Shown: positions 23,891-48,377 of the stretch, piece after piece | Position numbering within the stretch: the first letter of the stretch is position 1 | Layout of the letters: each line of letters begins with the position of its first letter | Source of the DNA: Ignavibacteriota bacterium | GTDB lineage: Bacteria; Bacteroidota; Ignavibacteria; UBA10030 | Assembly (NCBI GenBank): GCA_963701295.1 | Contig: OY969585.1 | Coordinates: forward strand, 512,827-576,826 | Direction: 5' to 3' | DNA length: 64,000 bases | Translations under genes and position numbers: made by a program | Notes under the pieces: generated by a model | The model's input: the letters and a program-made list of their open reading frames with translations, nothing else | Told to the model about the DNA's origin: nothing | Database searches by the model: none

Positions 23891-23971
23891 AATCACAAAA
23901 AAACTTACATTGAACTTGGACCTGCGATGGGGGCAAGTACCCAATATACTTTTTACTAAATTTATATTGGA

Positions 23972-24340
23972 TCACTTTTTGGGGGGCAGGTCAGTCGCAT
24001 ACTTGACACTCTTGCCGATTAGATGCTGGAGGTAGGATTCAATATGTTGCTGCTGAATCCTGATAATGGCCGCTGGTTCGATTGAATCGACCGATATATC
24101 CTGACTTTGGAGAAATCCTTTCAGATCACTGATATAGGACTCAATGGAGTTTTCTGCGACCTTCTGCTTTTTCAAGGATTGAATAAAGGCACTTAACGAA
24201 ATAAAGTTCGATTCGGATGGTTGACTTTGATTCAACGAGATATCCTCTGGTTCGATTAACTCACCACTAGTCAGAAAAAATTCTTCTATAAGGCGATTTC
24301 CAAGCTCATAGATGCCAATAACAGCACTTTTAAAAATCAA
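23972..24340 (-). CDS. Hypothetical protein
   Basis: 122-aa ORF abutting the right end of the IS. Confidence 0.3.
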   Translation of the reverse strand: MIFKSAVIGIYELGNRLIEEFFLTSGELIEPEDISLNQSQPSESNFISLSAFIQSLKKQKVAENSIESYISDLKGFLQSQDISVDSIEPAAIIRIQQQHIESYLQHLIGKSVKYATDLPPKK

Positions 24341-24715
24341 TGTTATAGAATAACAGCGTTTTCAAAAAATTAGTGTTATTCGTTTGTTCACAGGCGGTTC
24401 TGATCTTTTGTGACCGCTGAATCAGAGAAGTTATTCTCTAATGATGGGGATACAATTAAAGGGATTCGAAAGGTGAAACAAGCAGGAATTTATTCCTGCT
24501 TGATTTTAAAGAAAATGATAATCGAAACATTACTCAACAATACAGATTATGAATGAAGGAAAGGATTACTCATCAAAAGATAAAAAAGGATGAGTCTTTA
24601 CCCTGTTTCCATCGGAACCATTGATATTTAGCATATGTTTAAATAGTATCGTCACTAATAATTTTGATGTAATCCGAAAAGCAAATATCAAAGAAACGAA
24701 AGGTGAAATTAATCC

Positions 24716-25654
24716 ATGATTGCCGTAATATTTGCTTCACGAATAAGTAAGTTCACGAGATCATTAATAGCAGTAGCCATCATCCTCCTATCGTTTCCTG
24801 CAGTGGGCAATGCGTGTGCATGTGGCTGCAATGTTTTCTCTGTCAGTTCAATGTGGGGGATGCCGACTTCTTCCGGCATCAGAATGGCTTTACTTTACGA
24901 TTATATGGATCAGCGCAATAACTGGTCTGACTGGCGAACCGCGGCATCAAATCTCAATAGCAATATTGAACTGCGAACGAATTTTTATACATTCGGATTA
25001 CAATATATGGCAGACCGGAAGTGGGGTGTGATGATTGAACTCCCTGTGTGGGATCGTTACTTCGTCACGACAGATGATGACGGTGTCACATCATCCGCAC
25101 AGCACACAACATTAGCGGATGTTAGGGTGATGGGCATGTATACAGGTTTATCTGAAGACATGTCAATGGGTATCCTCTTTGGTTTGAAGCTGCCAACCGG
25201 ATCTTTCAACCAATCACTTTTGGATAGGGATACACAGATTGGAACAGGAACAACGGATTTATTGTTGGGCGCGTACAGAATGGGACAGGAAAATGGATGG
25301 GGATGGTATACACAGGCATTGTTTCAACATGCACTGAGTCCGCGTGATGACTACCGACCTGGCGACAACTTCGATATAAGTATCGGGATGCATTATGATA
25401 ATCTTTTAGAGAGGTATAACATTATACCGATGGTGCAGCTTGTAGCATCCTTCCGAGGTATGGACAGCGGATTAAATGCAAGTCCCGATAATACGGGCTA
25501 TGAACGGTTGTACATTTCTCCCGGCCTCGAAGTTACTGCAATCGGTCATCTCAGTATCTTGGGAAACTTGAAGATACCCATCATGACACACGTGAACGGA
25601 TATCAACTTGTCGCACCAGCACTATCAACTGTAACCTTGAGTTACCGTTTTTAG
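24716..25654 (+). CDS. Outer-membrane beta-barrel protein (MetA-pathway/transporter-like family, putative) with an N-terminal CACGC motif
   Basis: Signal peptide. Alternating amphipathic beta-strands. C-terminal ...LSYRF ending in an aromatic residue. Confidence 0.5.
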   Translation: MIAVIFASRISKFTRSLIAVAIILLSFPAVGNACACGCNVFSVSSMWGMPTSSGIRMALLYDYMDQRNNWSDWRTAASNLNSNIELRTNFYTFGLQYMADRKWGVMIELPVWDRYFVTTDDDGVTSSAQHTTLADVRVMGMYTGLSEDMSMGILFGLKLPTGSFNQSLLDRDTQIGTGTTDLLLGAYRMGQENGWGWYTQALFQHALSPRDDYRPGDNFDISIGMHYDNLLERYNIIPMVQLVASFRGMDSGLNASPDNTGYERLYISPGLEVTAIGHLSILGNLKIPIMTHVNGYQLVAPALSTVTLSYRF

Positions 25655-25679
25655 ATTCAATAATTACAACTTTACATCT

Positions 25680-26732
25680 CTATTTTGAAAGAACGGTAAC
25701 GTGTCTTTCTTTAAGCCATAAAGAAACATTTACCAAACTGATAAGTACAGGTACTTCAACTAATGGGCCAATAACGGCTGCAAATGCAACACCGGAATTG
25801 ATTCCAAATACTGCAATAGAGACTGCTATTGCCAATTCGAAGTTATTGCTCGCAGCCGTAAAGGAAAGCGTTGCGGACTTTGCGTAATCGGCTCCCGCCT
25901 TCTTTGCTAGATAAAATGATATAAAGAACATCAAAACGAAATACACGACAAGAGGAAGAGCAATGCGTAATACATCCAGAGGAATTTTCACTATGTACTC
26001 ACCTTTTAGTGAGAACATAACTACGATCGTAAACAAGAGTGCAATGAGGGTTATCGGTGAGATTTTAGGAATGAACTTTTGCTCGTACCATTGCTTTCCT
26101 TTCAGTCGCAACATTGTGAATCGAGTAATTATTCCTGCAAAGAAAGGAATGCCGAGATAGATGAAAACGCTTTTAGCTATTTGTCCTATTGTGATATCCA
26201 CAGCAAATGTCCGCAAACCTAACCACGTCGGAAGCACCGTCAGAAACACATACGCATAGACAGAAAAGAACAGCACTTGGAAGATCGAATTGAAGGCAAC
26301 AAGTCCTGCAGCATATTCCGTATCACCTTTTGCAAGTTCATTCCAAACGATAACCATAGCGATGCAGCGAGCAAGTCCGATGATGATCAATCCTGCCATA
26401 TATTCTGGATATCCGCGGAGAAAAATAATAGCAAGAATGAACATCATCACAGGTCCAACAAGCCAGTTTTGGATCAGGGAAAGTGAAAGCACTTTTGTAT
26501 TCTTGAAAACATCGCCAAGTTCTTCATATTTCACTTTTGCTAATGGCAGATACATCATGAGAATCAAACCGATGGCAATAGGAATATTGGTCGTTCCGGA
26601 CTGAAAGGAATTCCAGAAGCCAACGATGCCTGGGAAGAAATAACCCGACAATACTCCAAAAACCATCGCGAGAAATATCCAGAGCGTCAGATACCGGTCA
26701 AGAAATGAAAGCCGCTTTATCACATTTTGCAT
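25680..26732 (-). CDS. acr3: ACR3-family arsenite efflux permease
   Basis: N-terminus [20 protein letters not shown] characteristic of ACR3/ArsB(Bsu). 10 TM segments. Next to arsC. Confidence 0.85.
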
Positions 26733-26741
26733 GTCAAGCTC

Positions 26742-27185
26742 TTAGTTTAATCTTGAGGGTTGTGGTTCAGCAATCCATTTTTCGATTTGAGCTTTTATTT
26801 GATTGCGGATATCTATTGTTTTGTGAAGTTTCTCTTCGAATGTCCCTTGCAGATTTGAAGGATCGGGAAAGCTCCAATGAAGCTTCTTTGCAATACCCGG
26901 GAATATTGGACATCGCTCACTGCTTGCTTCATCACAGACTGTAATGACATAATTAAAACGCCGTCCCTGCTTATAAAGATCAAACACATCTTGTGTCTTC
27001 TTTTGAGAAATATCAATTGCCATGTCCTTCATAGCTTCGATTGCAAGAGGATTAAGTATTCCGGGTTCAAGTCCGGCGCTTTCAGCAATGAACCTATTTC
27101 CTGCAAGATGGTTTAATAGCGCTTCTGCCATTTGGCTTCTCGCACTATTATGAACGCAAACGAAAAGAACTTTTTCTTTCTCCAT
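26742..27185 (-). CDS. arsC: Arsenate reductase, LMW-PTP / thioredoxin-coupled type
   Basis: P-loop [16 protein letters not shown] with downstream Cys residues. About 147 aa. Confidence 0.8.
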
Positions 27186-27329
27186 AGTATCTCCTTAACG
27201 ATTTAATGATTCCATTGAATATTCTTGCGGAAATATTTTAAGTCTGTTCCTGTCATTTAGATTACTTTCACGCAATGTAATATAATGGGAATAGACAATG
27301 GAGAGAAGTTACCTTATTGTTAACTTTTT

Positions 27330-28109
27330 TCAATTCTTCAACTTCTTGTATAGTGCATTCAATCTGTCTTGATAAAATCCTTTGATTGTGGTTTCTTCTT
27401 CAGCTAATGGTCTTACCGGCACTAAATCCATAACTTCGGCCGGTGTCAACCCAGATTCGTACATTGTCTTTGCAGCACCGTTAAGCATTTTTGGAATGGC
27501 ATCCTCCAGAGTATTATCCGATATGCCAAAGGATTTTGCTAGTTCCTGCAATTCATACAATTGAAACCAAAAATAGGTCGGTCCCATCGCTGTGGTAATT
27601 GCAAATGATTCTAGGAGTTCCTCCGGCACTTCCGGGCAATCACCTAGTATGCCGAACAGTTCGAGCACTGTCTTCCTTTTATCTTCACTTATAGTGCTGG
27701 AGAATGCAACCGGATTGTATCCGGCATTTACAACGGAGGGGGCGTTTGGATTAATACGAGCAATGTTTTTAAATCCACCGAGTCCCTCAGAGAGTTTAGC
27801 AATTGATACTTTTGGAGCTAGTGATATAACAAGCGCTGATGGATTCATAACGGATTTGATTTCCTGCAATATCTCACTAACTACCGGAGGGTGAAGTCCG
27901 ACAAGAACAATATCACACGATGCCGGTAGTTTTGCATTGTTGACTACCATTTCGATGTGTTGAAACTCGTTTTTTAGTTTATTCAAAACATCTGCATTGT
28001 TATCGCTCACGACGATCTTGTTCGGAAGTTTTCCGACACGGCTCCATCCCTTTAATATGATCTTTGCAACACGACCGCCGCCTATAAAGCCAATTGTCAA
28101 TTGTTCCAT
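27330..28109 (-). CDS. NADP-dependent oxidoreductase, pyrroline-5-carboxylate reductase (ProC)/F420-oxidoreductase-like
   Basis: N-terminal Rossmann motif IGFIGGGRVAKII. ProC-like C-terminal dimerisation region. Confidence 0.6.
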   Translation of the reverse strand: MEQLTIGFIGGGRVAKIILKGWSRVGKLPNKIVVSDNNADVLNKLKNEFQHIEMVVNNAKLPASCDIVLVGLHPPVVSEILQEIKSVMNPSALVISLAPKVSIAKLSEGLGGFKNIARINPNAPSVVNAGYNPVAFSSTISEDKRKTVLELFGILGDCPEVPEELLESFAITTAMGPTYFWFQLYELQELAKSFGISDNTLEDAIPKMLNGAAKTMYESGLTPAEVMDLVPVRPLAEEETTIKGFYQDRLNALYKKLKN

Positions 28110-28123
28110 ATCTGACTCTCCCC

Positions 28124-28531
28124 TTAATGTAATTTTTCAGTGTGATCTAATATCGTTCCGGCTATAACGGCTTGCACAGCTTCATCAATTGTTGTTATAT
28201 CCGTTACAACAGGTTTGATGTGTAATTGAAGCATACTTTGATACGCCCCGTTACCCATGCCGCGTGCAAGTAAAATCTGGCAATCCTTAATTGCTTCAGC
28301 CATACTGATATGCTTATTGTGGGATGACTCATCAAGGCCGTGTTGAGTGCCGGAATGATGATGTTCTTCGTGAGCGAAATTGTGATGGCCTATTTTCTCG
28401 CGGCGTTCTCTTTTAACAACTATGCCGTTTTCGACAAACAATACTTCATAGAACTTTGCTCTTCCGAAATGCTGACTGATTGTCAAGCCGTCATCTGTAA
28501 CGACCGCAATATTGATGTTTTTATTTTCCAT
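28124..28531 (-). CDS. NifX/NifB-C-terminal-like protein (dinitrogenase FeMo-cofactor biosynthesis family)
   Basis: IAVVTDDGLTISQHFGRAKFYEVL... pattern typical of the family. Confidence 0.55.
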   Translation of the reverse strand: MENKNINIAVVTDDGLTISQHFGRAKFYEVLFVENGIVVKRERREKIGHHNFAHEEHHHSGTQHGLDESSHNKHISMAEAIKDCQILLARGMGNGAYQSMLQLHIKPVVTDITTIDEAVQAVIAGTILDHTEKLH

Positions 28532-28543
28532 TTTGATATTCCT

Positions 28544-29245
28544 TTAGAATGATGAATAGAAAGTGTAGATTCCGCCAAGAATGACGAGAACTCCTGCAAT
28601 GCGTTTTATCCATAAAACGATATTCGATCTGTTTGTCCAATCGAGATATGCTTGTATACGGGAAGTAAGTCCGCCCGCTGCAACGATAACTCCGCAATGT
28701 CCGAGTCCGAAAGCGAGAAGCAACATTCCCCCTGCTATAACGTTTGTGCTCGACATCTGAAACACAATACCTAAAACCGGTGCCATAAATGCAAATGTGC
28801 ACGGACCAAGTGCTATTCCGAATATCAATCCGAGAACAAATGCAGACCAGAGCGCTGAACGATTCTGTATGGGACGTAGATTCACTCCTGTATCAGGAAG
28901 GCGAATAATGTCCATCAGGTACAGCCCAACGATAAAGAAAACAACTGCAACAGCATATTTTCCATATGCACCAACATCTCCCATAATTCTTCCGAGAGAT
29001 GCAGTGATAATTCCGAGAACAGCAATTGTCAGTAAGATTCCAACAGCGAAAACGAAAGCAAGAAATACACCCCGTGATGTCTTTTTCTCATTTTTTGATG
29101 TGAGGAAACCAATGATAAGTGGAATACTTGATAAATGACACGGGCTTAGAAGAATGCTTAATATTCCCCATGAAAAGGAAGCAAGCAATGCAAGTGCCAG
29201 GTTTCCGTATAGAGCTTCCGTGAGTGCTGTGAAGAGAGACTCCAT
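28544..29245 (-). CDS. ccdA: CcdA/DsbD-like transmembrane thiol-disulfide electron transporter
   Basis: 6-TM protein with two conserved Cys residues in TM segments (LSPCHL..., LGPCTF). Confidence 0.75.
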   Translation of the reverse strand: MESLFTALTEALYGNLALALLASFSWGILSILLSPCHLSSIPLIIGFLTSKNEKKTSRGVFLAFVFAVGILLTIAVLGIITASLGRIMGDVGAYGKYAVAVVFFIVGLYLMDIIRLPDTGVNLRPIQNRSALWSAFVLGLIFGIALGPCTFAFMAPVLGIVFQMSSTNVIAGGMLLLAFGLGHCGVIVAAGGLTSRIQAYLDWTNRSNIVLWIKRIAGVLVILGGIYTFYSSF

Positions 29246-29248
29246 CGG

Positions 29249-29686
29249 TTATCCTTTTGAGTTGGAATTAGGTTTCAAACCTTTCGATTGCAGGAAAGCA
29301 TCAATCTCTTTTTCCGGAAAATATCCTTCATGCCGCATAAGCTCTTTGCCGTTTGCATCAAGAAAGACTTGCGTTGGTATCAAGCGGATATTATAGTCTT
29401 TTGCAAAATGCGCTTGTTCTTCTTTCCATACATCGTAAAATACTATCTTGATTTGACTGCCGTATTTTTCTTCAACTGCTTTCATCACCTTTTGCATGGC
29501 TTTGCAGGGAATACAATTTACCGATCCGAGTTCAACGAATGTGATGAGCGGGTTGGCAATTGTTGCGCTGGTATCCTTCGTTACAGAAGTGGGTTTTGTT
29601 TTCTTCGTGGTTTTCTTTGATTGTGCAAATGCCGCTGAACCAAAAGCGATGCTTAGAATCAGAAATAATACTATTTGTCTTTTCAT
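29249..29686 (-). CDS. Periplasmic thioredoxin-fold protein (TlpA/ResA-like, CxxC = CIPC) with signal peptide
   Basis: Signal peptide MKRQIVLFLILSIAFGSAAFA. Active site VNCIPCKAM. Redox partner of CcdA. Confidence 0.7.
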   Translation of the reverse strand: MKRQIVLFLILSIAFGSAAFAQSKKTTKKTKPTSVTKDTSATIANPLITFVELGSVNCIPCKAMQKVMKAVEEKYGSQIKIVFYDVWKEEQAHFAKDYNIRLIPTQVFLDANGKELMRHEGYFPEKEIDAFLQSKGLKPNSNSKG

Positions 29687-29925
29687 GTGTGTGCTCCACT
29701 CAACCAAGAAAGGAGTTGTTCGTCTTTAGGAATTGAACCTGAACTCTTCACAGCGCCATCAACGACTAAGCCGGGAGTAGCGAGAATGCCGAATTTCATA
29801 ATTTCCTGCAGATCGGTCACTTTTTCGATTTCCAAATTAAGTCGATGCTTATCATTCAACGACCGGACTTTTTGTTCAAGTGTTTTACATTTCGCACAGC
29901 CTGAACCGAGTATTTGAATTTTCAT
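29683..29925 (-). CDS. Small thioredoxin-like 'redox-active disulfide protein 2' family protein
   Basis: MKIQILGSGCAKCKTLEQ... About 80 aa. Its stop overlaps the downstream start as ATGA. Confidence 0.7.
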   Translation of the reverse strand: MKIQILGSGCAKCKTLEQKVRSLNDKHRLNLEIEKVTDLQEIMKFGILATPGLVVDGAVKSSGSIPKDEQLLSWLSGAHT

Positions 29926-29946
29926 CTGTAGATTCCTACTATTTTG

Positions 29947-30972
29947 TTAATACACAAGGTTAAATACATACCCTACGATGATAATACCTACTGCAACGAC
30001 GCTAACAAAAATGAATATCAACGGCATTTTCAAAACTTTCCGCAATATAATTGTTTCAGGCAATGAGAGACCAATCACCGACATCATAAAGGCAAGCGTT
30101 GTGCCGAGCGATGCACCTTTTTCAAGCAGTGCATGAACAACGGGAATGATACCAGCTGCATTCGAGTAGAGTGGAACACCGATGAGGACAGCAATGGGAA
30201 CTGACCACCATGCGGACTTTCCCATAAGACTGGCCATGAAATTCTCCGGCACATATCCATGAATACCTGCTCCGACGGCTATGCCGACGAGAAGATATGG
30301 CCATACTTTTCCAACAATATCATTTACTGCGTCATAACCCGAGTGCATCCGGTCACGGAATGTTTGCACTGTTTCTTCCGGTGAAGCAGCATTGGAATGG
30401 ATTTGATAGACCCAATCTTCAACGAAATGTTCGACCTTCAACCTGCCAATGACGTAACCGGAAGTGATGGCGATGAGCAATCCTGTACTCACATAGAGCA
30501 AAGCTGTCTGCCAACCGAATAAACCGAATAACAATACAACGGCCACTTCATTGATCATTGGCGCTGCAATGAGGAAAGAGAATGTGACGCCAAGAGGGAT
30601 TCCCGACTCCACGAAACCAATGAAGAGTGGGATTGCTGAACATGAGCAAAACGGAGTGACAATGCCGAGCATACTTGCAAGAACATTGCCTGTAAAGAGA
30701 GATTTTCCTCCTAACATCTTGCGAGTACGTTCCGGGGAAAAGTATGTCCGCACAATACCGACTGCAAAAACCACAAGTGTAAGAAGCAATAATACTTTCG
30801 GCGCTTCGTAAACAAAGAATCTTACGGCTTCCATCAATCGTTGGCCTTGGACTAATCCTGTCAAAGAAATAAATGCGTCTGCAAGAGGCTGCAACGCTGT
30901 ATACAGTATAACCCAAAGCAGCAAAAGAATCGTTGCGGCGCTAAGCGTATATTGTTCAATCATCTTCTTCAT
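29947..30972 (-). CDS. arsP: ArsP-type permease (DUF318) with the TPFCSCS motif
   Basis: ...GIVTPFCSCSAIPLF... matches the conserved ArsP TPFcSCS motif. 8 TM segments. Confidence 0.75.
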   Translation of the reverse strand: MKKMIEQYTLSAATILLLLWVILYTALQPLADAFISLTGLVQGQRLMEAVRFFVYEAPKVLLLLTLVVFAVGIVRTYFSPERTRKMLGGKSLFTGNVLASMLGIVTPFCSCSAIPLFIGFVESGIPLGVTFSFLIAAPMINEVAVVLLFGLFGWQTALLYVSTGLLIAITSGYVIGRLKVEHFVEDWVYQIHSNAASPEETVQTFRDRMHSGYDAVNDIVGKVWPYLLVGIAVGAGIHGYVPENFMASLMGKSAWWSVPIAVLIGVPLYSNAAGIIPVVHALLEKGASLGTTLAFMMSVIGLSLPETIILRKVLKMPLIFIFVSVVAVGIIIVGYVFNLVY

Positions 30973-31217
30973 AATACACTCGTGTGCTCCAAGAGAATCT
31001 CTTTAAGCTTTTCTACGGTAGGCACAAAGCCCGCTATAGCGACCTTTTCGTCTATGACCAATCCGGGTGTCCGCATGATGCCGTAGGAAGCGATCTTCTG
31101 ATAGTCTTGGACCTTTTCAACGACAGCTTCGAGGTTCAATTCCTGTAACGCTTCCTTCGTCCGCTTTTCTAGTGTTTGACAATTCATACAGCCGGACCCT
31201 AACACTTTAATAATCAT
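30969..31217 (-). CDS. Second small thioredoxin-like redox-active disulfide protein
   Basis: MIIKVLGSGCMNCQTLEKR... It is a paralogue of the gene at 29683-29925. Confidence 0.7.
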   Translation of the reverse strand: MIIKVLGSGCMNCQTLEKRTKEALQELNLEAVVEKVQDYQKIASYGIMRTPGLVIDEKVAIAGFVPTVEKLKEILLEHTSVL

Positions 31218-31235
31218 TTTCCTTCCTTTCGCAGA

Positions 31236-31583
31236 TTAGATTTTGCAGATTTTCTTACGGTCTACTCGATGAAGTTTTATTGCATCTTCCTGAATTGACT
31301 TATCATCATCGAACGATTTTTTGATAAGCCCAATTAATGAACGAGTGAACTTATATTCCGATTTATCATTCAATCGAAAATTCACCCATTTGCCATCCTT
31401 TGTATCGAGCAAAAGACTTGCATCTCTGAGGATTGTCAAATGTTTTGACACAGTCGAATTGGAAAGATCGAGCACCTCTCGAATCTCGCACATACACAAT
31501 TCCCGTTCAGCAAGCATCTTAACGATACGGATGCGATTGGGATCGCTCAGGGCTTTAAAGATATTGACATAATCACGTTTCAT
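31236..31583 (-). CDS. arsR: ArsR/SmtB-family metalloregulator
   Basis: LSDPNRIRIVKMLAERELCMCEIREVLDLSNSTVSKHL. Winged helix-turn-helix with a CxC metal site. Confidence 0.85.
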   Translation of the reverse strand: MKRDYVNIFKALSDPNRIRIVKMLAERELCMCEIREVLDLSNSTVSKHLTILRDASLLLDTKDGKWVNFRLNDKSEYKFTRSLIGLIKKSFDDDKSIQEDAIKLHRVDRKKICKI

Positions 31584-31654
31584 AGATACTCCTTCATTTC
31601 GTCAACTAACGAAATATAAATACTCTTTCAGAATAAAGCAAGGGCATCACTCTC

Positions 31655-32563
31655 CTATCGCGAAAGACTCTTCAGATGTCTTAATGCACCATCAGTTAGC
31701 CCCAATGCTTGAGCGGCCTTTCTTTGGCAATTATTGTGCTTTTCCAATGCTTGTTGTATCAATCTCCTTTCCATCCTTGCGACGGAATATTTTAGTGTAA
31801 ATTCCCTTCCTTCCTCAGTCATCAGATTCATTTTAGCAAGTTGAATTCTGTCCTTCTGCCTAATTGCTTCATCATCAGGCATAACTTGGAGGGTTTTGAC
31901 AAATGATTTGAGCTCAAGAATATTTTCATTCCATCTGTTACGCTGAAGCAATTTGACGAAGTTATTATCCATTGGATTTCTTCGCTCTATTTGAAATTGA
32001 GTGAAGAAATGTTGTGCAAGCTCAGGAATATCCTCCTTCCGTTCTTTGAGTGTCGGCACGTAGATCAATTTGTATTTTGCGAGAATCTTTGAAAGCCCAG
32101 GGATAATGGAACCTGATTTGAATAGCCGTTGTGGATGTTTGTTAAATACGAAGATCAATCTGCATCGAACTGGGCGTTCATCCTCCGTGCCAAGTCGAAT
32201 CACTGTTCTGCTAAGGATAGCTTTCACCAATTGTTCTTGCAGGAATTTCGAAGCACTATCAATGTGTTTTAGAACTATAGTAGTCGGCAATTCGAGAACG
32301 CTGCGGCGGGTAGTCGGAAGCTCCGGTGGACTGCCTCCAAGTAATCTGACACGTTGATCTCGTTCACTTAGTATATTGAAATTGACGGTTTCGAGTTCAC
32401 GGTCCTTCAACAACGAATGGGCGTGAATGCGGGAAGACAAAAGAGATTTGCCGACTCCCAGGTCGCCGGTGATAACAAGCGGAAAGGTATCCGCCGATAG
32501 TTTTGTGAGGGAAGCTCTGATGCGCTTGATTGCTGGACTCCCCCCTATCAGGTGGTCTGGCAT
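31655..32563 (-). CDS. Sigma54-activator-like (AAA+ plus Fis-type HTH) regulator without a receiver/sensor domain and without GAFTGA; Walker B degenerate
   Basis: LIGGSPAIKRI...ITGDLGVGKS (Walker A). C-terminal HTH ...CQRKAAQALGLTDGALRHLKSL. LLGGSPPELPTT occupies the place of the ESELFGHEKGAFTGA region. Confidence 0.65.
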   Translation of the reverse strand: MPDHLIGGSPAIKRIRASLTKLSADTFPLVITGDLGVGKSLLSSRIHAHSLLKDRELETVNFNILSERDQRVRLLGGSPPELPTTRRSVLELPTTIVLKHIDSASKFLQEQLVKAILSRTVIRLGTEDERPVRCRLIFVFNKHPQRLFKSGSIIPGLSKILAKYKLIYVPTLKERKEDIPELAQHFFTQFQIERRNPMDNNFVKLLQRNRWNENILELKSFVKTLQVMPDDEAIRQKDRIQLAKMNLMTEEGREFTLKYSVARMERRLIQQALEKHNNCQRKAAQALGLTDGALRHLKSLSR

Positions 32564-32842
32564 TAAGCAGCATTTCAGTTATGTGATAGATTACTCGACA
32601 CGACCGTCCCAAACAACATGAAACAATGCATGAATTATTCATACGATACCCGATGCTTAAAGAGCTACAATGACTCTGTTAGACGGGATTAATGCTAAAG
32701 TGATTGTTTGAAGCAGAAAGTAAAGCGGCGTGTCTAAAAGATAGTGTCTGAAAAAAAGTTTGTCAAGGAAAATCATCCTTAAGACCATGAGGATTTTTCC
32801 TCATGTCATTAGGGTTTCCCCTAAAGTGGGTTAGGGATTTCC

Positions 32843-33181
32843 CTAATATATAGAATCAGAAAGAAATTCAACTCCATCATCCAACTTGATAGATGCAATG
32901 GCACGGATAATTTTCTCAAGTTCCTTACGCTCGCTTGAAACATTGACACCAAGAAAATCAATATCCTTAGTGGGCCTTGCTTTCTCAATATTGTAAGCGA
33001 GAAGAAGGAAGCCGCCTTTTAACACAAACTTCTTTACATACTTTGATGCTGCAAGACGTGCAAGAAAGCGCTCCTGAATGTATCGCAGTAATAGAAAATT
33101 AAAATCAAGGTTTTCTTTTTCAGAAATATTTTTAAGGCGCGCTAGAACTGATGCGGAAACATTGGTAGTCGGTTTTTTCAT
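32843..33181 (-). CDS. AbiEii/AbiGii-family nucleotidyltransferase toxin, truncated (N-terminal about 112 aa only)
   Basis: N-terminal AbiEii motif. Full-length proteins are about 280-300 aa. The ORF ends at a cluster of palindromes. Confidence 0.55.
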   Translation of the reverse strand: MKKPTTNVSASVLARLKNISEKENLDFNFLLLRYIQERFLARLAASKYVKKFVLKGGFLLLAYNIEKARPTKDIDFLGVNVSSERKELEKIIRAIASIKLDDGVEFLSDSIY

Positions 33182-33771: not shown

Positions 33772-34188
33772 ACGGATGGTTCTAATTAGCTGCACATAAT
33801 ATAAACGTGCAGTAGAAAAGAAGCAAGAGGCTGGCAAAGATTTAATCAAAAACGCCTGACGCATTACCAGACGCCAGTCGTTTAGGGAGTCTAACTATGC
33901 GCTGTCGGGGAGACGGCACGGGAATATTGTATGAAATGTTCTGGTTTTTGTCAATTAATATTTTAGATGAAAAATAAAGACCCCGGCACATTTATAAGTA
34001 CCGGGGCTCAAGGGGAAGGGGGTAAAGAACCACTGCGCGCCAACACAGTGATGCTACTGAAAAATAGCCGTTGATATCTTCGGGGGATTGATATCAATTT
34101 ACCCCCTTTTTAATTTCCGATTCATAAACTTTTTATTGCTTGGCATAATGATATTTACTAACAAAGATTTAAATAGTCAATTTCTCGT

Positions 34189-34542: not shown

Positions 34543-34686
34543 TTTGATTTACAACTTAACGAATGGCAACTTTACTGACAGATCAATTCTTCTTCGCCTG
34601 CTTCTCCATCCCTCGATACCAGTCATGTCGAGCTTGAGCGCCTGGTTATACCGCTTGCTTTAAATAACCGCAAGAGAAGAAAAAGA

Positions 34687-39200: not shown

Positions 39201-40559
39201 GACTCTTGGCAGCCAGCTAATCATATTGGCCAAGTCAGAATAAGCCAACTCAGATACTTCGAGCTGATCGAGGGCGTCGAGAAAGATGATGAGTGGTCGC
39301 TGTGTTGTCGCTAAATCAAGGAGACGTATGAACTCCTTCTCCAGTTCTTTAGCTCCGGACGGGATGTTGCCAAGTTTCACATGATACGCCTCGCTGATCT
39401 CGCGAACCAGATAATATAGGAGTCCACGCATTTCTATCGAGTGAGGTGTGGCTCCAATGAAGCGTTGGATAACATAGGCGTGCGCCTGTGTGTCAACAGC
39501 TTCGCGCGCCGCCTTCGCCATCAGGGCGGATTTACCGCTACCCGTCGGGCCAAAGATAAAAAGGGTGTATTCGTTTTCGTTACGGAGGTAAGCCGTGATC
39601 TGGTTCAATTGAGTCTGTCGGCCTACGAAGTTCTTGCACCGATCTGCACCGAATTCCTGATGCGCTGATCGCTCGAGAGATAAGGCGTCGACGTCTGCTA
39701 GCCGTTGAAACTCCTCTTCCAGGATGTTCCTCAGCGACGCCAACGCATCGGCGGCGAACTGGGCGAGGTGTTCATTTAGCGTCGTGCCGTTCCATATGAC
39801 AGCATAATCGAAATGATTGATCCCGGGTTTCTGCCGGATTGCTTCCTTGAGGGCGCGCGCCTGTTCTATACCATCGTCAACGTAGGGACTATTATGAGGG
39901 AGTTCTTCGACATTCTCGATATTGCGCAGAAAGGCGACAACATGTTCCTGCTGATCCGGCAACGCTAGCGCTCCATGGATAATTTCTTGATGCGTAGCCG
40001 AGCACTCATATTTGATCCGGCGTTGGTCATTCATCGGCCATCCAAGATGGTTTATAGCGTCTAGCAAGATGGCGTGCAACGTCCGTTCTGTCTGGAACCA
40101 GGCGTCATAGTCTTTTTCCTCAGGCACATACTCACGGCGCGAGCGTAATAAATATTCTGGGGGCATGGCGTTGGTGTCGAGCCGGTACCAGTCCGCTAAT
40201 AGAGGACGGTGGGCGACTGGGACCGCGGAGCGAATCGTGTCGAATTCAGTTACCTCGATCTGCGGCGGCAACGGCAGCCACCCATAGCGGTCACCGAAGA
40301 GGATGAGGAAGTTCGGTCGGGGCGAAACGTCCTGGCACCGTTTGAGCTCAGTCAGGCAAATATTCATCGTTTGCTGGTCGAGCGCCGCTTCTTCGGTGAC
40401 CCCCCAGCGTAGGTCAATGGCCTGAAAGTGGCACTGGTTCGCCTCGCAGAATTTCTGCAGTTCAGGGAACACCTTCTCCTGGAGCGCGTTGCGTTCCTCT
40501 TTCATGTCGGCAAAAGTTGAGCTGACAAATACACGGAATATCTTGGTTTGTTTTTGCAT
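36234..40559 (-). CDS. STAND NTPase: DUF4062 N-terminal domain, NACHT ATPase and C-terminal WD40 beta-propellers (about 14 or more repeats); NWD1/TEP1-like architecture
   Basis: N-terminus IFRVFVSSTFADMKEERNAL... matches the DUF4062 pattern. Walker A IFGPTGSGKSALM. Many LxGHxxxVxxCAFSPDG...WD repeats. GC content is visibly higher than the surrounding DNA. Confidence 0.8.
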   Translation of the reverse strand: MQKQTKIFRVFVSSTFADMKEERNALQEKVFPELQKFCEANQCHFQAIDLRWGVTEEAALDQQTMNICLTELKRCQDVSPRPNFLILFGDRYGWLPLPPQIEVTEFDTIRSAVPVAHRPLLADWYRLDTNAMPPEYLLRSRREYVPEEKDYDAWFQTERTLHAILLDAINHLGWPMNDQRRIKYECSATHQEIIHGALALPDQQEHVVAFLRNIENVEELPHNSPYVDDGIEQARALKEAIRQKPGINHFDYAVIWNGTTLNEHLAQFAADALASLRNILEEEFQRLADVDALSLERSAHQEFGADRCKNFVGRQTQLNQITAYLRNENEYTLFIFGPTGSGKSALMAKAAREAVDTQAHAYVIQRFIGATPHSIEMRGLLYYLVREISEAYHVKLGNIPSGAKELEKEFIRLLDLATTQRPLIIFLDALDQLEVSELAYSDLANMISWLPRVLPPYVRIVASLIESEDERPTFVREMLKKTVTWLSRMSTNMSRKSRDSERMFLRLDHMRQKEGAQVLQHWLHDVHRSLTKQQQKRVLAGFRKCPYPLYLKLAFEEVRRWKSWDDVSVLAEDVAGMVDNMLTRLQDKRHHGELLVKTFLGLLSAARNGLSESEIIVLLSDQDVMDDLKARSAKSPEAEGIPVVVWLRLYHDLAPYLVERAADNTVLMSYYQRQIGEAIKQRYLRPAYHARLARFFLWKADPTGNETWIGSDIHALVELPFQEINAGDRDVLNATLSDLLFLEAKVKGDLLNDLLADYQRALELKPPIANPTEIATYYNTVMLEQHRLRSDPRNAFQYLYNNLSWKSGQISDAFDALRKRFLARGGKFLRQCREPQLMESHLLMTLTGHTESVETCAFSPDGKVIVSGGKDKTVKLWDVDTGSEIVTLSGHTDTVTCCQFSPDGKFIASSSKDKTVKVWNRATEKLQGTLTGYESGVDYCTYLANGDRIASYSNIDGILKIRSIYTGEVAFSTRTRQQGIALGFCRLSRDGNFLALGENRENVGFNWNETLTLTNIKTGEKRTLFTGENHGISEIHSCEFSPNGSRIVCGTGVGIKVWDTATGKEMPPFTGHDGSVSTCEFSSDGNLIVSGGSTLKLWNAVIGKELATLANDYEGAKSCAISPDGSHIVSTSTDNTLKIWNTKGSKKLATLAGHHACISHLAFSRDGARIVSSSKDKTLKIWDGRQGRELATLAGHDDEVTCSHFSPDGGRIVSSSKDKTLKLWDSSNGEQLWTFIGHNETSVNTCAFSPEGSRIVSGGGDATVKLWDAKMGHELATLRGHRSSVESCAFSPEGSLIVSGSNDTTLKLWESRTGKDLATLTGHTGSITACAVSPDGQWIVSGSYDHTVRLWDRHTGQPLTTLVGHQDTVVTCAFSSDGRFIISGSFDHTVKVWDRRTGQVILSYCCDAEVFAVSISPDSHLIACGDFLGNFYLFRLEGCGE

Positions 40560-42442: not shown

Positions 42443-42605
42443 TTTTGATCCGATAAGGAATATTGGATGGAGGCATGCTATTTTAGTTTCTCAAAATTAT
42501 AACGTATATGTATTTCTCGATTGGACAATCGCCTTACCTTTAGAAATGTTATTGCAATGACAAATCTTGGTTGGATATTAAGATAGGCACCGTAGTCCTA
42601 TTTGA

Positions 42606-45359: not shown

Positions 45360-45388
45360 AATTTAGCTCCAAATACTCTTTTAAAAAG

Positions 45389-47980
45389 TCAACTCAAGCT
45401 TGACACAATCTTATATTTTGCTTGTTTTAAAATATCAGGATATTTTCTTACGGAATTCCTGTCCTTCTCTTTGTTCTCTTCGGACAACTCGAGATACGGT
45501 TTCAGACAGTCATGTATTTTTTTTGAATCGTCTCGAGGTTTTCCACAGGTCCAACCATTTTCAATTTTATGGTCCATCCAGTCATTGTGTTCGGCTTCTG
45601 CAAGCATCTCAATGTTCGCTTCGATGATCTCCATAATCTCCACTATGGGTTGGGACTTTGAATAAGTCTCAGGTACTACATATAACCCTACCAGATCGAG
45701 TACATTAGGGATTCGAGCCGCGGCAGCCCGATTGTCGTCCTTGTAATCTTCTGATAATAAATCGAAATCCCGATTCATCTCTGACCGGATCCACTTTCCT
45801 TTTATTCCCGATTGCCAATAAAAATCGTGGACGAAGGGCGCCAGATCCTCCGCGTGGGTTTTGAACTTCAAATCCCGATTAACGATACCAATAAAATCTG
45901 CAGAATCTGCATGCATGGACAGGATCTCCTCAGACGGCAGATCGGATCTGCGTATTGAAGGAATGTCCTGCTTTTTCAACTGGAGGATAATTTTTTCTAA
46001 AGACCGGGCGCCATGTTTGAACCGATTGGTCTCAATGAGCGCTGAAAGGATACCATGGTCAATGGCCAGCGGTTCGGTTTCCTTCAATCCGAGCATTGCC
46101 CTGATCAGCAAGCCTCTTCTGACCGGGTAACATACGTCTTGGGAATCATCGATCCATTGTTGTTTTTTTGTATTGTAAGTCTGTTTCTGGTTCGGTCCGA
46201 GCACGTTCAAATACCCGCTAAGCCTGCTTATGAAGTCCGGACCTTTTTTCAATTTGAATTCATTCCACTTCTTTTCATCTGTCTCTTTTGGACCGAAGTT
46301 CTCCATATCATAGCTGGTACCGCCCGCGAACACAAAAACGCTTTTCCCAATCGGGTGTGAAATCTGACCCTCGAGAAATTTCCCATCTTGCATCGGCGCC
46401 AGAAGGTACTGCAACCATTGGTATTCCTTGGAATCAAATTCATCCCAGAACACAATCGGTAAAGTACCCTGAAGCACTTTATCTCTCACCTGATGGAAAG
46501 CCCCAATTAAAGCATCGGGATCCTTGAACTGAGATAGGTTAAATTCCAAAATGGGAACGTCTTTGCCGAGAATCCCTTTTGCGATCTCGCAGATTCCGAA
46601 GCTCTTGCCTGCTCCTGGAGGTCCGAACACAGCAAGGCTGAGCGGTTTCTTGCCTTTATCGTGATCTTTATAATCTATGATCATCGCGCGAATATTCCGC
46701 AGGCTTTCGATTTCATTTCGATCCGCGGTGTACAGTTTTCCAAATCGGGCACACGGAACCTGGGTCAACGCCTTGGGACCTTTAACAGCAACCCTACGGC
46801 CAATGCCAAAGAGTGGCCTTGGGTTTTTATGGATGCCTTCCAGAACAGCTGTCATAATCGTCCAGGTCTTGCGTTCTAGCTCGATAGACTTTTTGGGATT
46901 CGGTATCTGAATTATGGGATACCAAAATTTCGGATTCAGGACATCCTTAATCACATCGACGAGTGGGAATCCGGGGTTACTGCATCCCGCAGTCCCGTGC
47001 CCCGAGAGGTGCATGGTCCGCATCGCTGAAAGTCCTGCACGGATGCCTTCATAAATTGAATCTGAATGATTCGGTTGGAGTAGACGATCGATGATTCCTG
47101 AAGTGAGGCAGGCCATATAGCCGAGACCTTGTCCTTCAATTGGATCGCTCCATTCACGTTCAAGGTGTTCCGGATCGTAAACAAGATGAAAGATTTTCTC
47201 GCTAACGTTGTTTTCCACATGGAGCGCGCCTTCCGATCCGAAGTGAACAATGAGATGCCGGCAATTCAGCAGGGAATTAATTTCTGAATTGAAGCACAAT
47301 TCCTCTGCAAGTTCCAGAGCTGTTCGCTCCCACGAAATTCCCCTGCTCACTTTCACTTCTTCCCGTCGGATATCCCCGATTGAAACCACAACCACCAGCT
47401 TGTCGCGGAACTGGGTACTAAGATACCTCCACAGATCACCCTGACCCACTGGGCTTGACATTTTTAGGACAATCCACTTCAGTTCTTGTATCTCCTTTTT
47501 CAGAATCGACTTTGGCCATGCTCCCTTCTGTGTATTTTGCCTGAACCCAAGTCCACCGTCATCGATTACTACGACTGTGGGTTTGTTCGACGTTTCGGCT
47601 GCATGTTCCACGTAAGAGAAAGAAGATTCTATTTGACTACCATATCCTAGGGGCTGTGCCATTCTCCAAACTTTTTTATCCTTTTCAAAAGGAAACGGTT
47701 TCCAGAGTGCGTATCCATTCAAGGCCGCAGGAAGCTTTTTAAAAATATCATCTCTTAATCCGAACTGAACGTCAAACGGATTTTGAAGTTCTTTACTCTC
47801 AGATCTCTTTTTCCCTATTTCTTCGAGGATTCGAAAAAGAAGTCCAGCCCCGCCGTCTGTCGTTTGCTCCTGAGTTCCTGTTTTTTCTATAGCATTGGGA
47901 ACAAGACGTTCGCCCATATAAATTTGATGATCAACGACCACATCACCAGTAACTAAAACCGTTCTGGAGTTTCGAGGCAT
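45389..47980 (-). CDS. AAA+ ATPase with a C-terminal RyR (ryanodine-receptor-type) domain and a long N-terminal Rossmann-like region
   Basis: Walker A VFGPPGAGKSFG and Walker B IVFWDEFD. C-terminal EHNDWMDHKIENGWTCGKPRDDSKKIHDCLKPYLELSEENKEKDRNSV is the RyR-domain signature. Confidence 0.7.
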   Translation of the reverse strand: MPRNSRTVLVTGDVVVDHQIYMGERLVPNAIEKTGTQEQTTDGGAGLLFRILEEIGKKRSESKELQNPFDVQFGLRDDIFKKLPAALNGYALWKPFPFEKDKKVWRMAQPLGYGSQIESSFSYVEHAAETSNKPTVVVIDDGGLGFRQNTQKGAWPKSILKKEIQELKWIVLKMSSPVGQGDLWRYLSTQFRDKLVVVVSIGDIRREEVKVSRGISWERTALELAEELCFNSEINSLLNCRHLIVHFGSEGALHVENNVSEKIFHLVYDPEHLEREWSDPIEGQGLGYMACLTSGIIDRLLQPNHSDSIYEGIRAGLSAMRTMHLSGHGTAGCSNPGFPLVDVIKDVLNPKFWYPIIQIPNPKKSIELERKTWTIMTAVLEGIHKNPRPLFGIGRRVAVKGPKALTQVPCARFGKLYTADRNEIESLRNIRAMIIDYKDHDKGKKPLSLAVFGPPGAGKSFGICEIAKGILGKDVPILEFNLSQFKDPDALIGAFHQVRDKVLQGTLPIVFWDEFDSKEYQWLQYLLAPMQDGKFLEGQISHPIGKSVFVFAGGTSYDMENFGPKETDEKKWNEFKLKKGPDFISRLSGYLNVLGPNQKQTYNTKKQQWIDDSQDVCYPVRRGLLIRAMLGLKETEPLAIDHGILSALIETNRFKHGARSLEKIILQLKKQDIPSIRRSDLPSEEILSMHADSADFIGIVNRDLKFKTHAEDLAPFVHDFYWQSGIKGKWIRSEMNRDFDLLSEDYKDDNRAAAARIPNVLDLVGLYVVPETYSKSQPIVEIMEIIEANIEMLAEAEHNDWMDHKIENGWTCGKPRDDSKKIHDCLKPYLELSEENKEKDRNSVRKYPDILKQAKYKIVSSLS

Positions 47981-48308
47981 GACATATCTCCTGATTAAAA
48001 AGTTGTATTTATACTTTACACGTCAGTTGCGTTGATAGAATAATATTTTTCATCTCCGAGGGAGCTCACACCAGTAGCAAATGTGAATGAAACACATAGT
48101 GAATCTTGTAATAAATCTCGATAAATACAATTAGTCGTTTTAGTATTGACTACACATTATGCAGAGGTTGTAAAAGAAGATTATTAGACAGAAATAATCA
48201 TCTTGAATCACACCGAATTTCTGCAAATCTTTATGAAAAATAGGGGATTTGAATATATACAGAATCGCTTGGTCTGTAATTAAGCGGTGAGATTGATGGA
48301 TGCATGAT

Positions 48309-48377
48309 CTGACCTGCCCCCCAAAAAGTGATCCAATATAAATTTAGTAAAAAGTATATTGGTACTTGCCCCCATCG
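48309..48377 (-). repeat. Solo 69-bp remnant of the IS3 right end (inverted copy of 23925-23994)
   Basis: ctgacctgccccccaaaaagtgatccaatataaatttagtaaaaagtatattggtacttgcccccatcg is the reverse complement of 23925-23994 apart from one indel. No transposase follows. Confidence 0.8.

Follow-up and report, generated by a model that had tools for sequence, protein, structure and literature searches.

The window analysed here is a stretch of 64,000 nucleotides (contig OY969585.1 of an Ignavibacteriota bacterium) in which the right end of an intact IS3-family insertion sequence (IS) recurs, inverted and alone, on the far side of an ars operon and a set of defence-type genes. This arrangement raises the question of whether the two ends belong to one Tn10-like transposon or are scars of IS-mediated insertion or recombination, both of which were put forward in the initial annotation.

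The inverted repeat and the element that carries it

A repeat search of the window identified a perfect 54-nt inverted pair (23941-23994 and 48309-48362), which blastn extended to 23925-23994 against 48377-48309 with 98.6% identity across 70 columns (E 6.8e-30); by blastn, this pair is the sole strong repeat of the IS region within the window. The recurrence as first described, with a single indel, was reproduced at 69 of 70 identical positions (E 7e-30), and the similarity is far above chance. The one 1-nt indel concerns a G/C within the run TATATT-GG(G)-TAC, right at the junction of the repeat's two parts. The tip ...GGTCAG terminates at 23994 and the tip CTGACC... begins at 48309, and therefore both tips point into the intervening 24,314 nt, the inward-facing geometry noted from the start. 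No transposase lies beside the solo copy, the neighbouring ORFs having no Pfam or NCBIfam match, and beyond 48377 we observed neither an alignment to the IS above shuffled controls nor an IRL-like motif with up to two mismatches allowed. The copy is thus a solo end, as initially described, and not part of another complete element extending beyond 48377. It is also present at the matching place in a strain contig (L076, ERR10755942; 98.8% identical), which ends inside the solo copy, a break expected of repeats. The features of the two copies are as follows.

22706-23941, plus strand: IS-core, an intact IS3-family IS of 1236 bp with ends GGTAC...GTACC, the unit common to tail-less relatives
22706-22750, plus strand: IRL of IS-core, pairing with 23898-23941
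22788-23051, plus strand: orfA, 87 aa, helix-turn-helix
23015-23890, plus strand: orfB frame with the DDE/rve transposase domain, open from 23015 (listed ORF 23072-23890)
23039-23045, plus strand: slippery heptamer A AAA AAG (-1 frameshift)
23898-23941, plus strand: IRR1, the cognate right IR of IS-core, whose last 17 nt (23925-23941) are the inner part of the 70-bp repeat
23942-23994, plus strand: tail, 53 nt from the IRL of a canonical IS-Y-type element, ending ...GGGGGGCAGGTCA(G), tip rightward
48309-48360, plus strand: solo tail, 52 nt that match those of the intact copy throughout, inverted, tip leftward
48361-48377, plus strand: stub, the final 17 nt of IRR1 (GGTACTTGCCCCCATCG), past which IS homology is absent
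48378-48751, plus strand: strain-specific DNA separating the stub from a conserved sulfur-gene cluster

The assignment of the intact element to the IS3 family rests on a match of OrfB to the profile NF033516 (IS3 family transposase) at 223 bits, against a cut-off of 160, on a match of OrfA to the N-terminal part of the same profile, and on precomputed Pfam matches at homologous loci in relatives (HTH_Tnp_1, HTH_21, rve and rve_3). The element also has the IS3 two-ORF layout with orfB in the -1 frame and a slippery site, and a simulated -1 shift at 23039-23045 yields a 367-aa OrfAB without a stop. Its left end had been placed at 22691; relatives place it at 22706. In the group A copies (L005, L006, L007 and L010; 84%) homology covers exactly 22706-23941 and the flanks are unrelated on both sides, which marks IS-core as a separate mobile unit; the family also moves without the tail. 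The termini of IS-core form good IRs of 40-45 nt but end in GGTAC...GTACC, where 5'-TG...CA-3' is expected of IS3, and the only canonical ...GGTCA end in the intact element is on the captured outer tail. A search for the target duplications that a transposition model would call for returned none: the 3-4-bp duplication of IS3 elements is absent from the intact element (left flank TCA, CAA after IRR1, TCG after the tail tip), and no matching 3-4-mers occur at the surviving junctions.

Judged from its sequence, the 70-bp repeat is the junction of two IS3-family elements and not a plain IS end, with 17 nt from the right IR of IS-core and a tail of 52-53 nt taken from the left terminus of another member of the family. 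The earlier description of the repeat as the last 70 bp of the resident IS3 therefore applies to the element as it stands here, but the stretch itself is a hybrid, in which 52-53 nt are foreign to IS-core. The tail is identical at 49 of 52 positions to the left terminus (TGACCTGCCCCCC...) of a complete canonical IS-Y in L037, and its last 29 nt recur without a mismatch at IS ends of Ignavibacteriales and Bacteroidota MAGs (L041, L056, L012); the tail-end motif was found at 65 IS3-type ends from many phyla. Group B copies of IS-core carry a different 52-nt tail, which matches at 52/52 positions the right end of this complete IS-Y, located on the contig that carries them. The transposases of IS-core and IS-Y, both of the IS3 family, are only 43% identical. 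Taken together, these matches suggest that the tail acts as a second, outer right end of IS-core. Because the solo copy retains the identical core/tail junction, its source is the hybrid rather than an ordinary IS-Y end; IS-Y sequence diverges from the solo copy after nt 52.

A variable region beside tRNA-Glu

The two copies lie in a region whose main features, from left to right, are as follows.

16316-17537, plus strand: tRNA-Glu and tyrosine integrase, the left edge of the region variable among relatives
23972-24340, minus strand: int', tyrosine recombinase N-terminal SAM-like domain, interrupted near codon 114 by the tip of the tail
25598-32778, minus strand: ars block with sigma-54 activator, ArsR, ArsP, thioredoxins, DsbD, FeMo-co-like protein, F420-type oxidoreductase, ArsC and Acr3
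32843-33957, minus strand: truncated AbiEii (AbiEii') and AbiEi, left over from an integrase-AbiE island like that of L077
34189-48012, minus strand: defence-type genes (cREC_REC, STAND-WD40, SLATT, TIR, AAA-RyR)

The tRNA-Glu gene (16316-16389) is followed by integrase genes at 16458-17537 and 17466-18488, and the relatives L077 and L078 carry different DNA here, so that a tyrosine integrase beside a tRNA gene is combined with variable content. In L077, a 43-nt copy of the tRNA-Glu 3' end adjoins an integrase at the equivalent place. The region thus resembles tRNA-linked islands in having tRNA-Glu followed by integrase genes and content that differs among close relatives, but it differs from them in lacking a right-hand att repeat: no direct repeat of the tRNA-Glu 3' end longer than 14 nt was found within the window, including the far border. 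To the right of the stub, the strain-specific DNA contains an ORF for a 70-aa Cys-rich protein (48419-48631) without a Pfam or NCBIfam family match, and homology to relatives resumes at 48752 for L077 and at 48867 for L078. The variable region therefore extends from tRNA-Glu (16.4 kb) to about 48.75 kb and does not match the span between the IS ends (23995 to 48308). The synteny comparison suggested in the initial annotation bears out variation between relatives in this region, with limits at 16.4-48.75 kb rather than at 22.7-48.4 kb.

The genes between the two copies show internal truncations. The last 8 codons and the stop codon of int' are supplied by the tail, as seen by translation across the junction; the gene product matches the Pfam families Phage_int_SAM_4 and SAM_1 and only positions 2-58 of TIGR02225 (XerD), and its C-terminal remainder was found nowhere in the window. 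The match of AbiEii' (32843-33229) spans HMM positions 1-71 of 238, the remainder again not being found in the window, and 33841-33957 is 83% identical to L077 16667-16782, with homology to the L077 island ending at 33957. The ars block, whose limits were set by comparison with homologous DNA of other genomes, shares 87-92% identity with L098 and 89% with L097, where its surroundings differ, and in both of these genomes it occurs alone, without the defence genes. The AAA-RyR module is common to other genomes only up to 47993 or 48012 and occurs alone, without any IS relic, in L099 and L100. By this composition, the 24-kb segment is a mosaic in which four or more modules meet at the truncated genes int' and AbiEii', with no coherent transposon cargo. 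The ars and defence genes would then sit in a tRNA-Glu-linked plasticity zone rebuilt piecemeal, in which the 70-bp copy is a scar and no proof of one 24-kb transposon. This bears on annotation, where a solo IS remnant and the truncated integrase and AbiEii pseudogenes are affected, and on how the mobility of the ars operon is read.

Origin of the two copies

We propose, with a probability of roughly 0.6, that the solo copy at 48309-48377 is what decay has left of another copy of the hybrid IS end, in inverted orientation, after a three-step history in a plasticity zone. In the first step, by analogy with what is seen in relatives, an ISMex11-like IS-core would have transposed into the left terminus of an IS-Y-type element, 51-52 nt from the tip and with its right end towards the IS-Y tip. 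In the second, the resulting junction, consisting of the IS-core right end and the 52-nt IS-Y terminus, would have been copied to at least two places, either because IS-core and tail transposed together via IRL and the outer tip or because the nest transposed as a whole. In the third, IS-core would have been kept intact at 22706-23994, where the tail tip now abuts the truncated integrase gene, and a deletion would have left just the tail and 17 nt of IS-core at 48309-48377; both outcomes are seen in the window, and the events leading to them are our reconstruction. Both copies lie within the tRNA-Glu-linked plasticity zone (16.4-48.75 kb), which would have been rebuilt via successive insertions and deletions. 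With a single complete IS and a stub without an outer end, the pair is unable to move the segment now, and its remaining role is at most that of a 70-bp substrate for inversion by homologous recombination. The core/tail junction kept by the solo copy, the mosaic make-up of the segment with its separately distributed modules, and a second relic of this kind next to the ars block of L098 speak for this history. The suggestion of a scar of IS-mediated insertion or recombination is the better half of the initial interpretation.

A different origin of the junctions would be an inversion, in which once-longer inverted copies recombined and flipped the 24 kb, so that the present junctions are the swapped partners of two older simple insertions. 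Inverted IS repeats are classical inversion substrates, and the lack of a target duplication at either copy is what such an exchange predicts. However, when the inversion is undone, the integrase gene is not restored and no matching 3-4-bp duplications appear (flanks TCA, TCG and ATC). Nearly all genes in and outside the segment also share one strand, and a relative with the opposite orientation was not found; we regard this origin as unlikely.

A compound transposon like Tn10 was the first half of the initial interpretation; in it, inverted IS copies would have flanked the int'-ars-AbiE-defence DNA and moved it via their outer left ends, and the right-hand IS would later have been deleted to 69 bp. 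The geometry is compatible, since accessory genes are bracketed by two inverted copies of one IS whose right ends face the cargo. An integrase gene that breaks off at the tail tip, and whose second half is missing from the window, is what one would expect of a compound transposon assembled elsewhere, and a compound transposon whose second IS decayed later would give an identical local picture. Moreover, in L098 the ars block adjoins a second relic of the hybrid end (18916-18978), with its tip towards Acr3. Against this, there is no target duplication, and the second copy is a 69-bp stub consisting only of the inner-facing right end, its outer end gone. The cargo looks pieced together, with truncations inside it (AbiEii' at 32843, the end of L077 homology at 33957) and an uneven G+C of 40-52%, and its modules occur apart elsewhere, as described above for ars in L097 and L098 and for AAA-RyR in L099 and L100. 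The breakpoints relative to the closest relatives are off the IS ends, at tRNA-Glu and 48752, and neither the cargo as one block between the same IS copies nor an empty site was found among the relatives compared. The compound transposon is likewise unlikely.

Slightly less credible is that the unit of 66-70 bp (tail and short stub, with TG...CA bounds) is a discrete product, whether a mobile element in miniature form or a defined trace of aberrant excision or strand transfer, and not what a random deletion left over. The idea draws on the relics in the window and in L098, which in different contexts share the tip boundary exactly, have inner boundaries at most 3 nt apart in IS-core (17 nt compared with 13-14 nt) and show no IS homology past the inner boundary above shuffled controls. 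At both ends of the unit, however, the IR motif points the same way (CTGACCTGCCCCCC... and ...GGTACTTGCCCCC, read along a single strand), and because these are direct copies, the unit lacks the terminal inverted repeats that a transposase requires and that are expected of a MITE. A target duplication is absent at both relics, only two examples are known, and other right-end relics of the family have stubs of 126, 135, 165 and 834 nt. An exact-match scan of metagenomes gave no hit.

The near-equal inner boundaries of the two relics are not predicted by random deletion, and they count against the history that we prefer.

Finally, the solo copy might be a lone IS-Y-type terminal repeat unrelated to the resident IS, given that its 52-nt tail is a terminus of the widespread IS-Y type, but this is refuted by the junction sequence, in which 17 nt of the IS-core right end are joined at the identical position in a 69/70 match to the intact copy.

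Insertion of ISMex11-like elements into IS ends

The first step of the preferred reading, the insertion of IS-core into an IS-Y terminus, has counterparts in relatives. In at least eight independent cases (the window, L080/L083, L001/L082/L086, L092, L090, L030 and ISMex11 in CM4, AM1 and XJLW), a second IS3-type terminus lies 50-52 nt past the right end of the element in the same polarity. Primary nests that have a 4-bp target duplication and retain the remaining host IS on the other side number two, both in relatives. On the AM1 megaplasmid the host right end is invaded, with the duplication GGCC and the C-terminus of the host OrfB upstream; on plasmid p1 of Sphingomonas NY01 it is the host left end, with the duplication CAAG and the host orfA lying upstream in the opposite strand. 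Core and tail together are flanked by a possible 3-bp duplication (ACC) in L030 only. The full pattern of IR-targeted insertion, namely recurrence, one orientation, a fixed position, a target duplication and a remaining target IS, is thus found in relatives and not in the window's own lineage.

ISMex11 of Methylorubrum extorquens, also of the IS3 family, is the closest named relative found, with an OrfB 56% identical. It resembles IS-core in size (1227 compared with 1236 bp), two-ORF layout and IR pattern, and in three complete replicons another IS3-type terminus lies 50-51 nt past its right end. It differs in host phylum and in its termini, TGACG...CCTCA compared with GGTAC...GTACC in the window.

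These cases lead us to suggest tentatively, at a little less than even odds, that the ISMex11-like clade is an "IS-end hunter" that inserts 51 nt inside either terminus of other IS3 elements, in one orientation and with a 4-bp duplication. The host IS would be disabled, and the invader would acquire another right end, outer and canonical, that would let it move on as a hybrid; the 70-bp repeat of the window would be such a hybrid end. If this reading is true, stubs of almost the same length in two unrelated relics would be a hint of a defined product of excision or abortive transfer. A solo IS end as such is ordinary, and the nesting in IS ends is the more interesting by-product of the analysis, as the structure of the repeat exposes an apparent preference by which ISMex11-like IS3 elements insert at one fixed position within other IS3 ends. 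Such a preference would yield hybrid ends at which IS boundaries are called wrongly, would inactivate resident ISs, and would supply alternative outer ends as well as short repeats, inverted or direct, from which rearrangements can start.

Several known systems share parts of this behaviour. IS4321 and IS5075 (IS1111 group) target one position, with one orientation, within the 38-bp repeats at the ends of Tn21-family transposons. The likeness lies in the fixed position and orientation within the terminal repeat of another mobile element, but these ISs belong to an unrelated DEDD transposase family with other chemistry and form no hybrid end. ISEcp1 uses alternative downstream sequences like its right end to extend the mobile unit; these are fortuitous and at variable distances, whereas here a true IS terminus forms the outer end and the distance is fixed at 51-52 nt. 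Insertions of IS911 and IS30 abut the target IR or form head-to-tail dimers, using the element's own ends, whereas here insertion is 51 nt inside the terminus, also into other IS3-family ends, and leaves a usable outer end. IR-targeted insertion by IS911 and IS30 is reportedly the subject of work by Loot et al. 2002, Rousseau et al. 2007, 2008 and Olasz et al. 1993, which PMC7986276 and PMC3299598 list or summarise. Circle-forming copy-out/paste-in ISs such as IS911 and IS30 are there described as attracted to DNA with IS ends, and the OrfA of IS911 as favouring targets without IS911 ends. A published account of end-nesting at a fixed position, including for ISMex11, was not found in the searchable literature. 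Compared with Tn10 and Tn5, the window has one 69-bp stub without an outer end, no flanking duplications and a cargo found nowhere else as a unit. The ISMex11-like clade itself spans Alphaproteobacteria to Ignavibacteriales and includes one deltaproteobacterial MAG.

The inverted repeat as a junction of two IS ends

A repeat search of the window identified a perfect 54-nt inverted pair (23941-23994 and 48309-48362), and blastn aligned 23925-23994 with the reverse complement of 48309-48377 (70 columns, 98.6% identical; E 6.8e-30), which places the repeat well beyond chance and confirms the inverted recurrence, with a single indel, described in the initial annotation. The intact end and the solo copy at 48309-48377 differ only by one G/C, within TATATT-GG(G)-TAC, and the solo is the only strong second match to the IS region within the 64-kb window. 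The tip of the intact copy (...CAGGTCAG) finishes at 23994 and that of the solo (CTGACCTG...) starts at 48309, so that both tips point into the intervening 24,314 nt, as had been proposed. The solo was also correctly described as having no adjoining transposase; searches of Pfam and NCBIfam matched nothing in the neighboring 70-aa ORF, and alignment of the DNA past 48377 with the IS scored no higher than shuffled sequence. In L076, a strain contig 98.8% identical to the window, the sequence begins within the solo at the same site.

The resident element is an intact IS3-family IS with the following features.

22706-23941, + strand: IS-core (GGTAC...GTACC, 1236 bp)
22706-22750, + strand: IS-core left inverted repeat, pairing with 23898-23941
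22788-23051, + strand: orfA, matching NF033516 "IS3 family transposase"
23039-23045, + strand: slippery A AAA AAG; with a -1 shift simulated here, OrfAB is open for 367 aa without interruption
ending at 23890, + strand: orfB, matching NF033516, in the -1 frame relative to orfA
23942-23994, + strand: tail, the last 53 nt, an appendage outside IS-core

An identical OrfA is encoded at ten metagenomic or MAG loci, where the DNA is 82-84% identical to the window IS. In group A (L005, L006, L007, and L010) the homologous stretch covers 22706 to 23941 only, with unrelated flanks in differing contexts, and these limits define IS-core as the self-contained mobile unit. In group B (L001-L004 and L009) homology reaches 23994, with the final 52 nt far more diverged. 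Directly left of the IS, AGTGTCA (22699-22705) is the reverse complement of TGACACT (24004-24010), which lies 10 nt past the tail tip within the truncated integrase gene; this match is probably due to chance (roughly 1%).

The tail ends in GGGGGGCAGGTCA(G). Scanning one genome per species for the exact pattern ATTGG-N9-10-GGGGGGCAGGTCAG yielded 65 loci in many phyla, against a rough chance expectation of about nine, and many of these matches were placed at contig ends. Judged by their surroundings, the majority are plainly IS3-family termini, with an orfA start 40-70 nt inside the motif or an OrfB C terminus (...GYRPPAPE) just before it. The genome and metagenome scans covered exact matches only, and on that basis the window tail gave 0 hits in JGI metagenomes. 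Matches to both kinds of tail were seen in an Ignavibacteriaceae MAG (L037, on a contig shared with L001), where a tailed group B IS-core is accompanied, 3.3 kb away, by a complete canonical IS3 element in inverted orientation. This element, IS-Y, encodes an OrfA of 92 aa and an OrfB of 272 aa that is only 43% identical to the OrfB of IS-core. The group B tail agrees at 52/52 positions with the closing 52 nt of IS-Y, which follow the orfB stop immediately, and the window tail agrees at 49/52 with the first 52 nt of this element, the left inverted repeat upstream of orfA; the last 29 nt of the window tail are in addition identical to IS ends in Ignavibacteriales/Bacteroidota MAGs (L041, L056, and L012). 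In the 70-bp repeat, 17 nt of the IS-core right inverted repeat are thus joined to 52-53 nt from a terminus that belongs to another IS. Its earlier designation as an IS3 right terminus is accurate for the last 70 bp of the element as it stands, but two IS ends are in fact combined in this hybrid. A palindrome within the repeat (CCAATATA...TATATTGG) was set aside as a structure because the junction itself partly produces it.

Two further arrangements of IS3 termini were seen. At L037 177-6078 (CAZYYD010000079), the complete IS-Y (-) and the IS-core with tail (+) flank two genes (443 and 659 aa); with its 52-nt identical, outward-pointing termini, this 5.9-kb arrangement is a candidate compound transposon. 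It showed no target duplication, and the first cargo gene has an 85% paralogue in the gene that follows downstream. In a Planctomycetaceae MAG (L018), two IS3-type terminal repeats stand face to face within about 60 nt (TGCCCTGCCCCC...GGGGGGCAGGTCA) and may represent a miniature IS3-derived element.

Nesting of ISMex11-like elements inside IS3 termini

A scan of metagenome contigs with the IS-core right end gave 18 loci, and a scan of viral contigs for the double end gave 0 hits. The spacing of the two termini is given in the table.

Table. Distance from the last IS-core base to the second IS3-type "...CA" terminus of the same polarity
Locus; tail; distance
L001/L082, L086, L091; IS-Y right end; 51 nt
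L092; third IS type; 51 nt
L090; right end of another IS-core; 51 nt
Window solo; IS-Y left end; 51 nt
Window intact copy, L080; IS-Y left end; 52 nt
L089/L096; another type; 23 nt
L030 (deltaproteobacterial MAG, distantly related element); canonical end; 51 nt

The nearest named relative of IS-core in PLSDB is ISMex11 of Methylorubrum extorquens (56% OrfB identity). Three ISMex11 cores, at least 99.4% identical, are present in complete replicons (CM4 pCMU01, the AM1 megaplasmid, and an XJLW plasmid), each with a different second terminus 50-51 nt downstream. By their sequence context, the AM1 megaplasmid copy and a copy on Sphingomonas sp. NY01 plasmid p1 are primary nests. In AM1 a canonical IS3 OrfB is represented by its C-terminal half, encoded to the left of the core and reading into it, with GGCC present on both sides as a duplication. 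In NY01 p1 the host IS orfA lies left of the core on the other strand, the 51 nt to the right make up the host left inverted repeat, and CAAG is duplicated; taking out the core and one CAAG regains a normal IS3 left end. As these relatives show, members of the ISMex11-like clade thus transpose into other elements of the IS3 family at a distance of 51 nt from either host tip, the right end of the incoming element being directed to that tip. The identical architecture suggests the same nesting origin for the lineage in the window. On Methylobacterium phyllosphaerae plasmid CBMB27-p1 (L105 1501-1660), a 135-nt ISMex11 right-end relic is followed by another ISMex11-type terminus just 18 nt on; like the 23 nt of L089/L096, this departs from the 51-nt spacing.

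An attraction of IS911 and IS30 to IS ends is cited in PMC7986276 and PMC3299598. Insertion by the ISMex11 clade resembles it, but occurs inside the terminus and uses the ends of other family members. The fixed 51-nt nesting is a variant of the known IR-targeted insertion, and we found no description of fixed-position nesting inside IS3 ends in the searchable literature. Nesting at this distance gives ISMex11-like elements a second outer end, a by-product of more interest than the solo remnant, which is itself ordinary.

Origin of the solo copy

The solo and the intact copy are identical at 69/70 positions with the core/tail junction at the same position, and IS-Y sequence diverges from the hybrid past nt 52, from which it follows that the solo came from the hybrid and not from a plain IS-Y end. 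The core/tail junction was probably duplicated in this genome, and the copy at the second site then cut to 69 bp. Passage from a primary nest to a free hybrid could have occurred via unit transposition or an adjacent deletion. The locus L098, from another genome, holds one more relic of this hybrid end (18916-18978, 88% identical). Its tip also faces the ars genes, and 3 nt separate it from a fragment corresponding to window 25598-25815 (the Acr3 3' end). This relic and the window solo end no more than 3 nt apart inside IS-core (...TGCCCCCA and ...TGCCCCCATCG), and no homology was found beyond the inner boundary of the two. In the same L098 region (14842-18978, ERZ25039480 contig_111340), a 3.9-kb insert with a second ArsR, VKOR, and a hydrolase lies between duplicated Acr3 3' ends.

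Other relics of the family are stubs of 126-834 nt; as these came from a right-end probe, no bias can be inferred from them, and an apparent over-representation of right-end-retaining relics was dropped as ascertainment bias, the metagenome scan pattern being the right end. The inner flank of the solo was rejected as a remnant of IS-Y orfA or IS-core on alignment scores equal to shuffled controls, and the 70-aa ORF beside the solo proved unrelated to a 70-aa ORF beside ArsR in L097. Within 48309-48631, the IS-Y left end of the solo points to this 70-aa Cys-rich ORF (start 48419), which takes the place of orfA in IS-Y, and by analogy a remnant IS promoter could drive it; a promoter search near the ORF gave only a weak -35/-10-like match (48377-48405). 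Identical-protein look-ups returned no record for AAA-RyR, a 312-aa ORF, or two OrfB start variants.

The 24-kb segment and its plasticity zone

The gene content of the segment between the tips is as first annotated, with an ars part (Acr3, ArsC, F420-type oxidoreductase, FeMo-co-like protein, DsbD, thioredoxin, ArsP, ArsR, and a sigma-54 activator) and a defence part (AbiEi, AbiEii, cREC_REC, a 1441-aa STAND-WD40 protein, SLATT, TIR, and AAA-RyR). The segment is a patchwork, and its G+C spans 40% to 52%. At about 50%, the G+C of the STAND-WD40 gene (36234-40559) exceeds the window mean of 42%, which suggests an origin separate from its neighbors.

The bracketing ends had been taken to mark either a Tn10-like composite transposon or a scar of IS recombination. 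The geometry would allow a former compound transposon, a reading to which the recurrence of ars/IS-end linkage in L098 lends some weight. Target-site duplications sought at 22706, 23941, 23994, 48309, and 48377 were absent, as were 3-4-bp duplications linking any of the four junctions; among hybrid copies at other loci, only a possible ACC at L030 was found. The modules also occur separately. The ars block (25706-31619) is found in L097, the contig of the close relative L077, across the sulfur cluster and with no IS relic; L098 holds a longer version (25598-32778) in a third context; and in L099 and L100 the shared part of the AAA-RyR module stops at 47993 or 48012, with no IS relic lying upstream. 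A tyrosine-recombinase gene (23972-24340) is cut by the tail tip after about 114 codons, AbiEii is cut at 32843 (HMM positions 1-71 of 238), and tblastn of the window recovered the remainder of neither, so that no simple insertion or inversion could be pieced together; undoing an inversion between the copies in silico restored no gene.

All tests that could be run favor piecemeal assembly in a tRNA-Glu-linked plasticity zone over a compound transposon, and the two hybrid-end copies are best regarded as two of many scars in that zone. The initial interpretation is thus partly supported: the repeat is a scar of IS activity, and a composite transposon is not shown. In the window, tRNA-Glu is followed by two integrases (16.3-18.5 kb), and a repeat of the tRNA-Glu 3' end (att) was sought at the far border of the island and was absent. 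The close relatives L077 and L078, about 85% identical in nucleotide sequence to the window in the sulfur-gene cluster, are collinear with it only rightwards from 48752 or 48867, and in L077 this place is taken by other integrase islands, among them a 43-nt copy of the tRNA-Glu 3' end; the synteny comparison proposed for the segment thus gave no support to a composite.

Further features lie outside the segment. A 7.1-kb block (55967-62879) missing from L077, L078, and L097 encodes a LytTR response regulator, a histidine kinase, a LolA-like protein, and a MacB/FtsX-type ABC transporter, and is flanked by a 181-nt direct repeat (55786-55966 and 62880-63060, 89%); it has the look of an insertion accompanied by duplication of the target. 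The YeeE/YedE-rhodanese gene (48868-50257), a single gene of 397-404 aa in relatives, is split in the window into 277 aa and overlapping upstream ORFs, which suggests a frameshift or pseudogene. The HlyD-type membrane-fusion gene of an AcrB/OEP efflux operon (10156-11260) is likewise present as two overlapping ORFs of 167 and 209 aa, suggestive of a frameshift.
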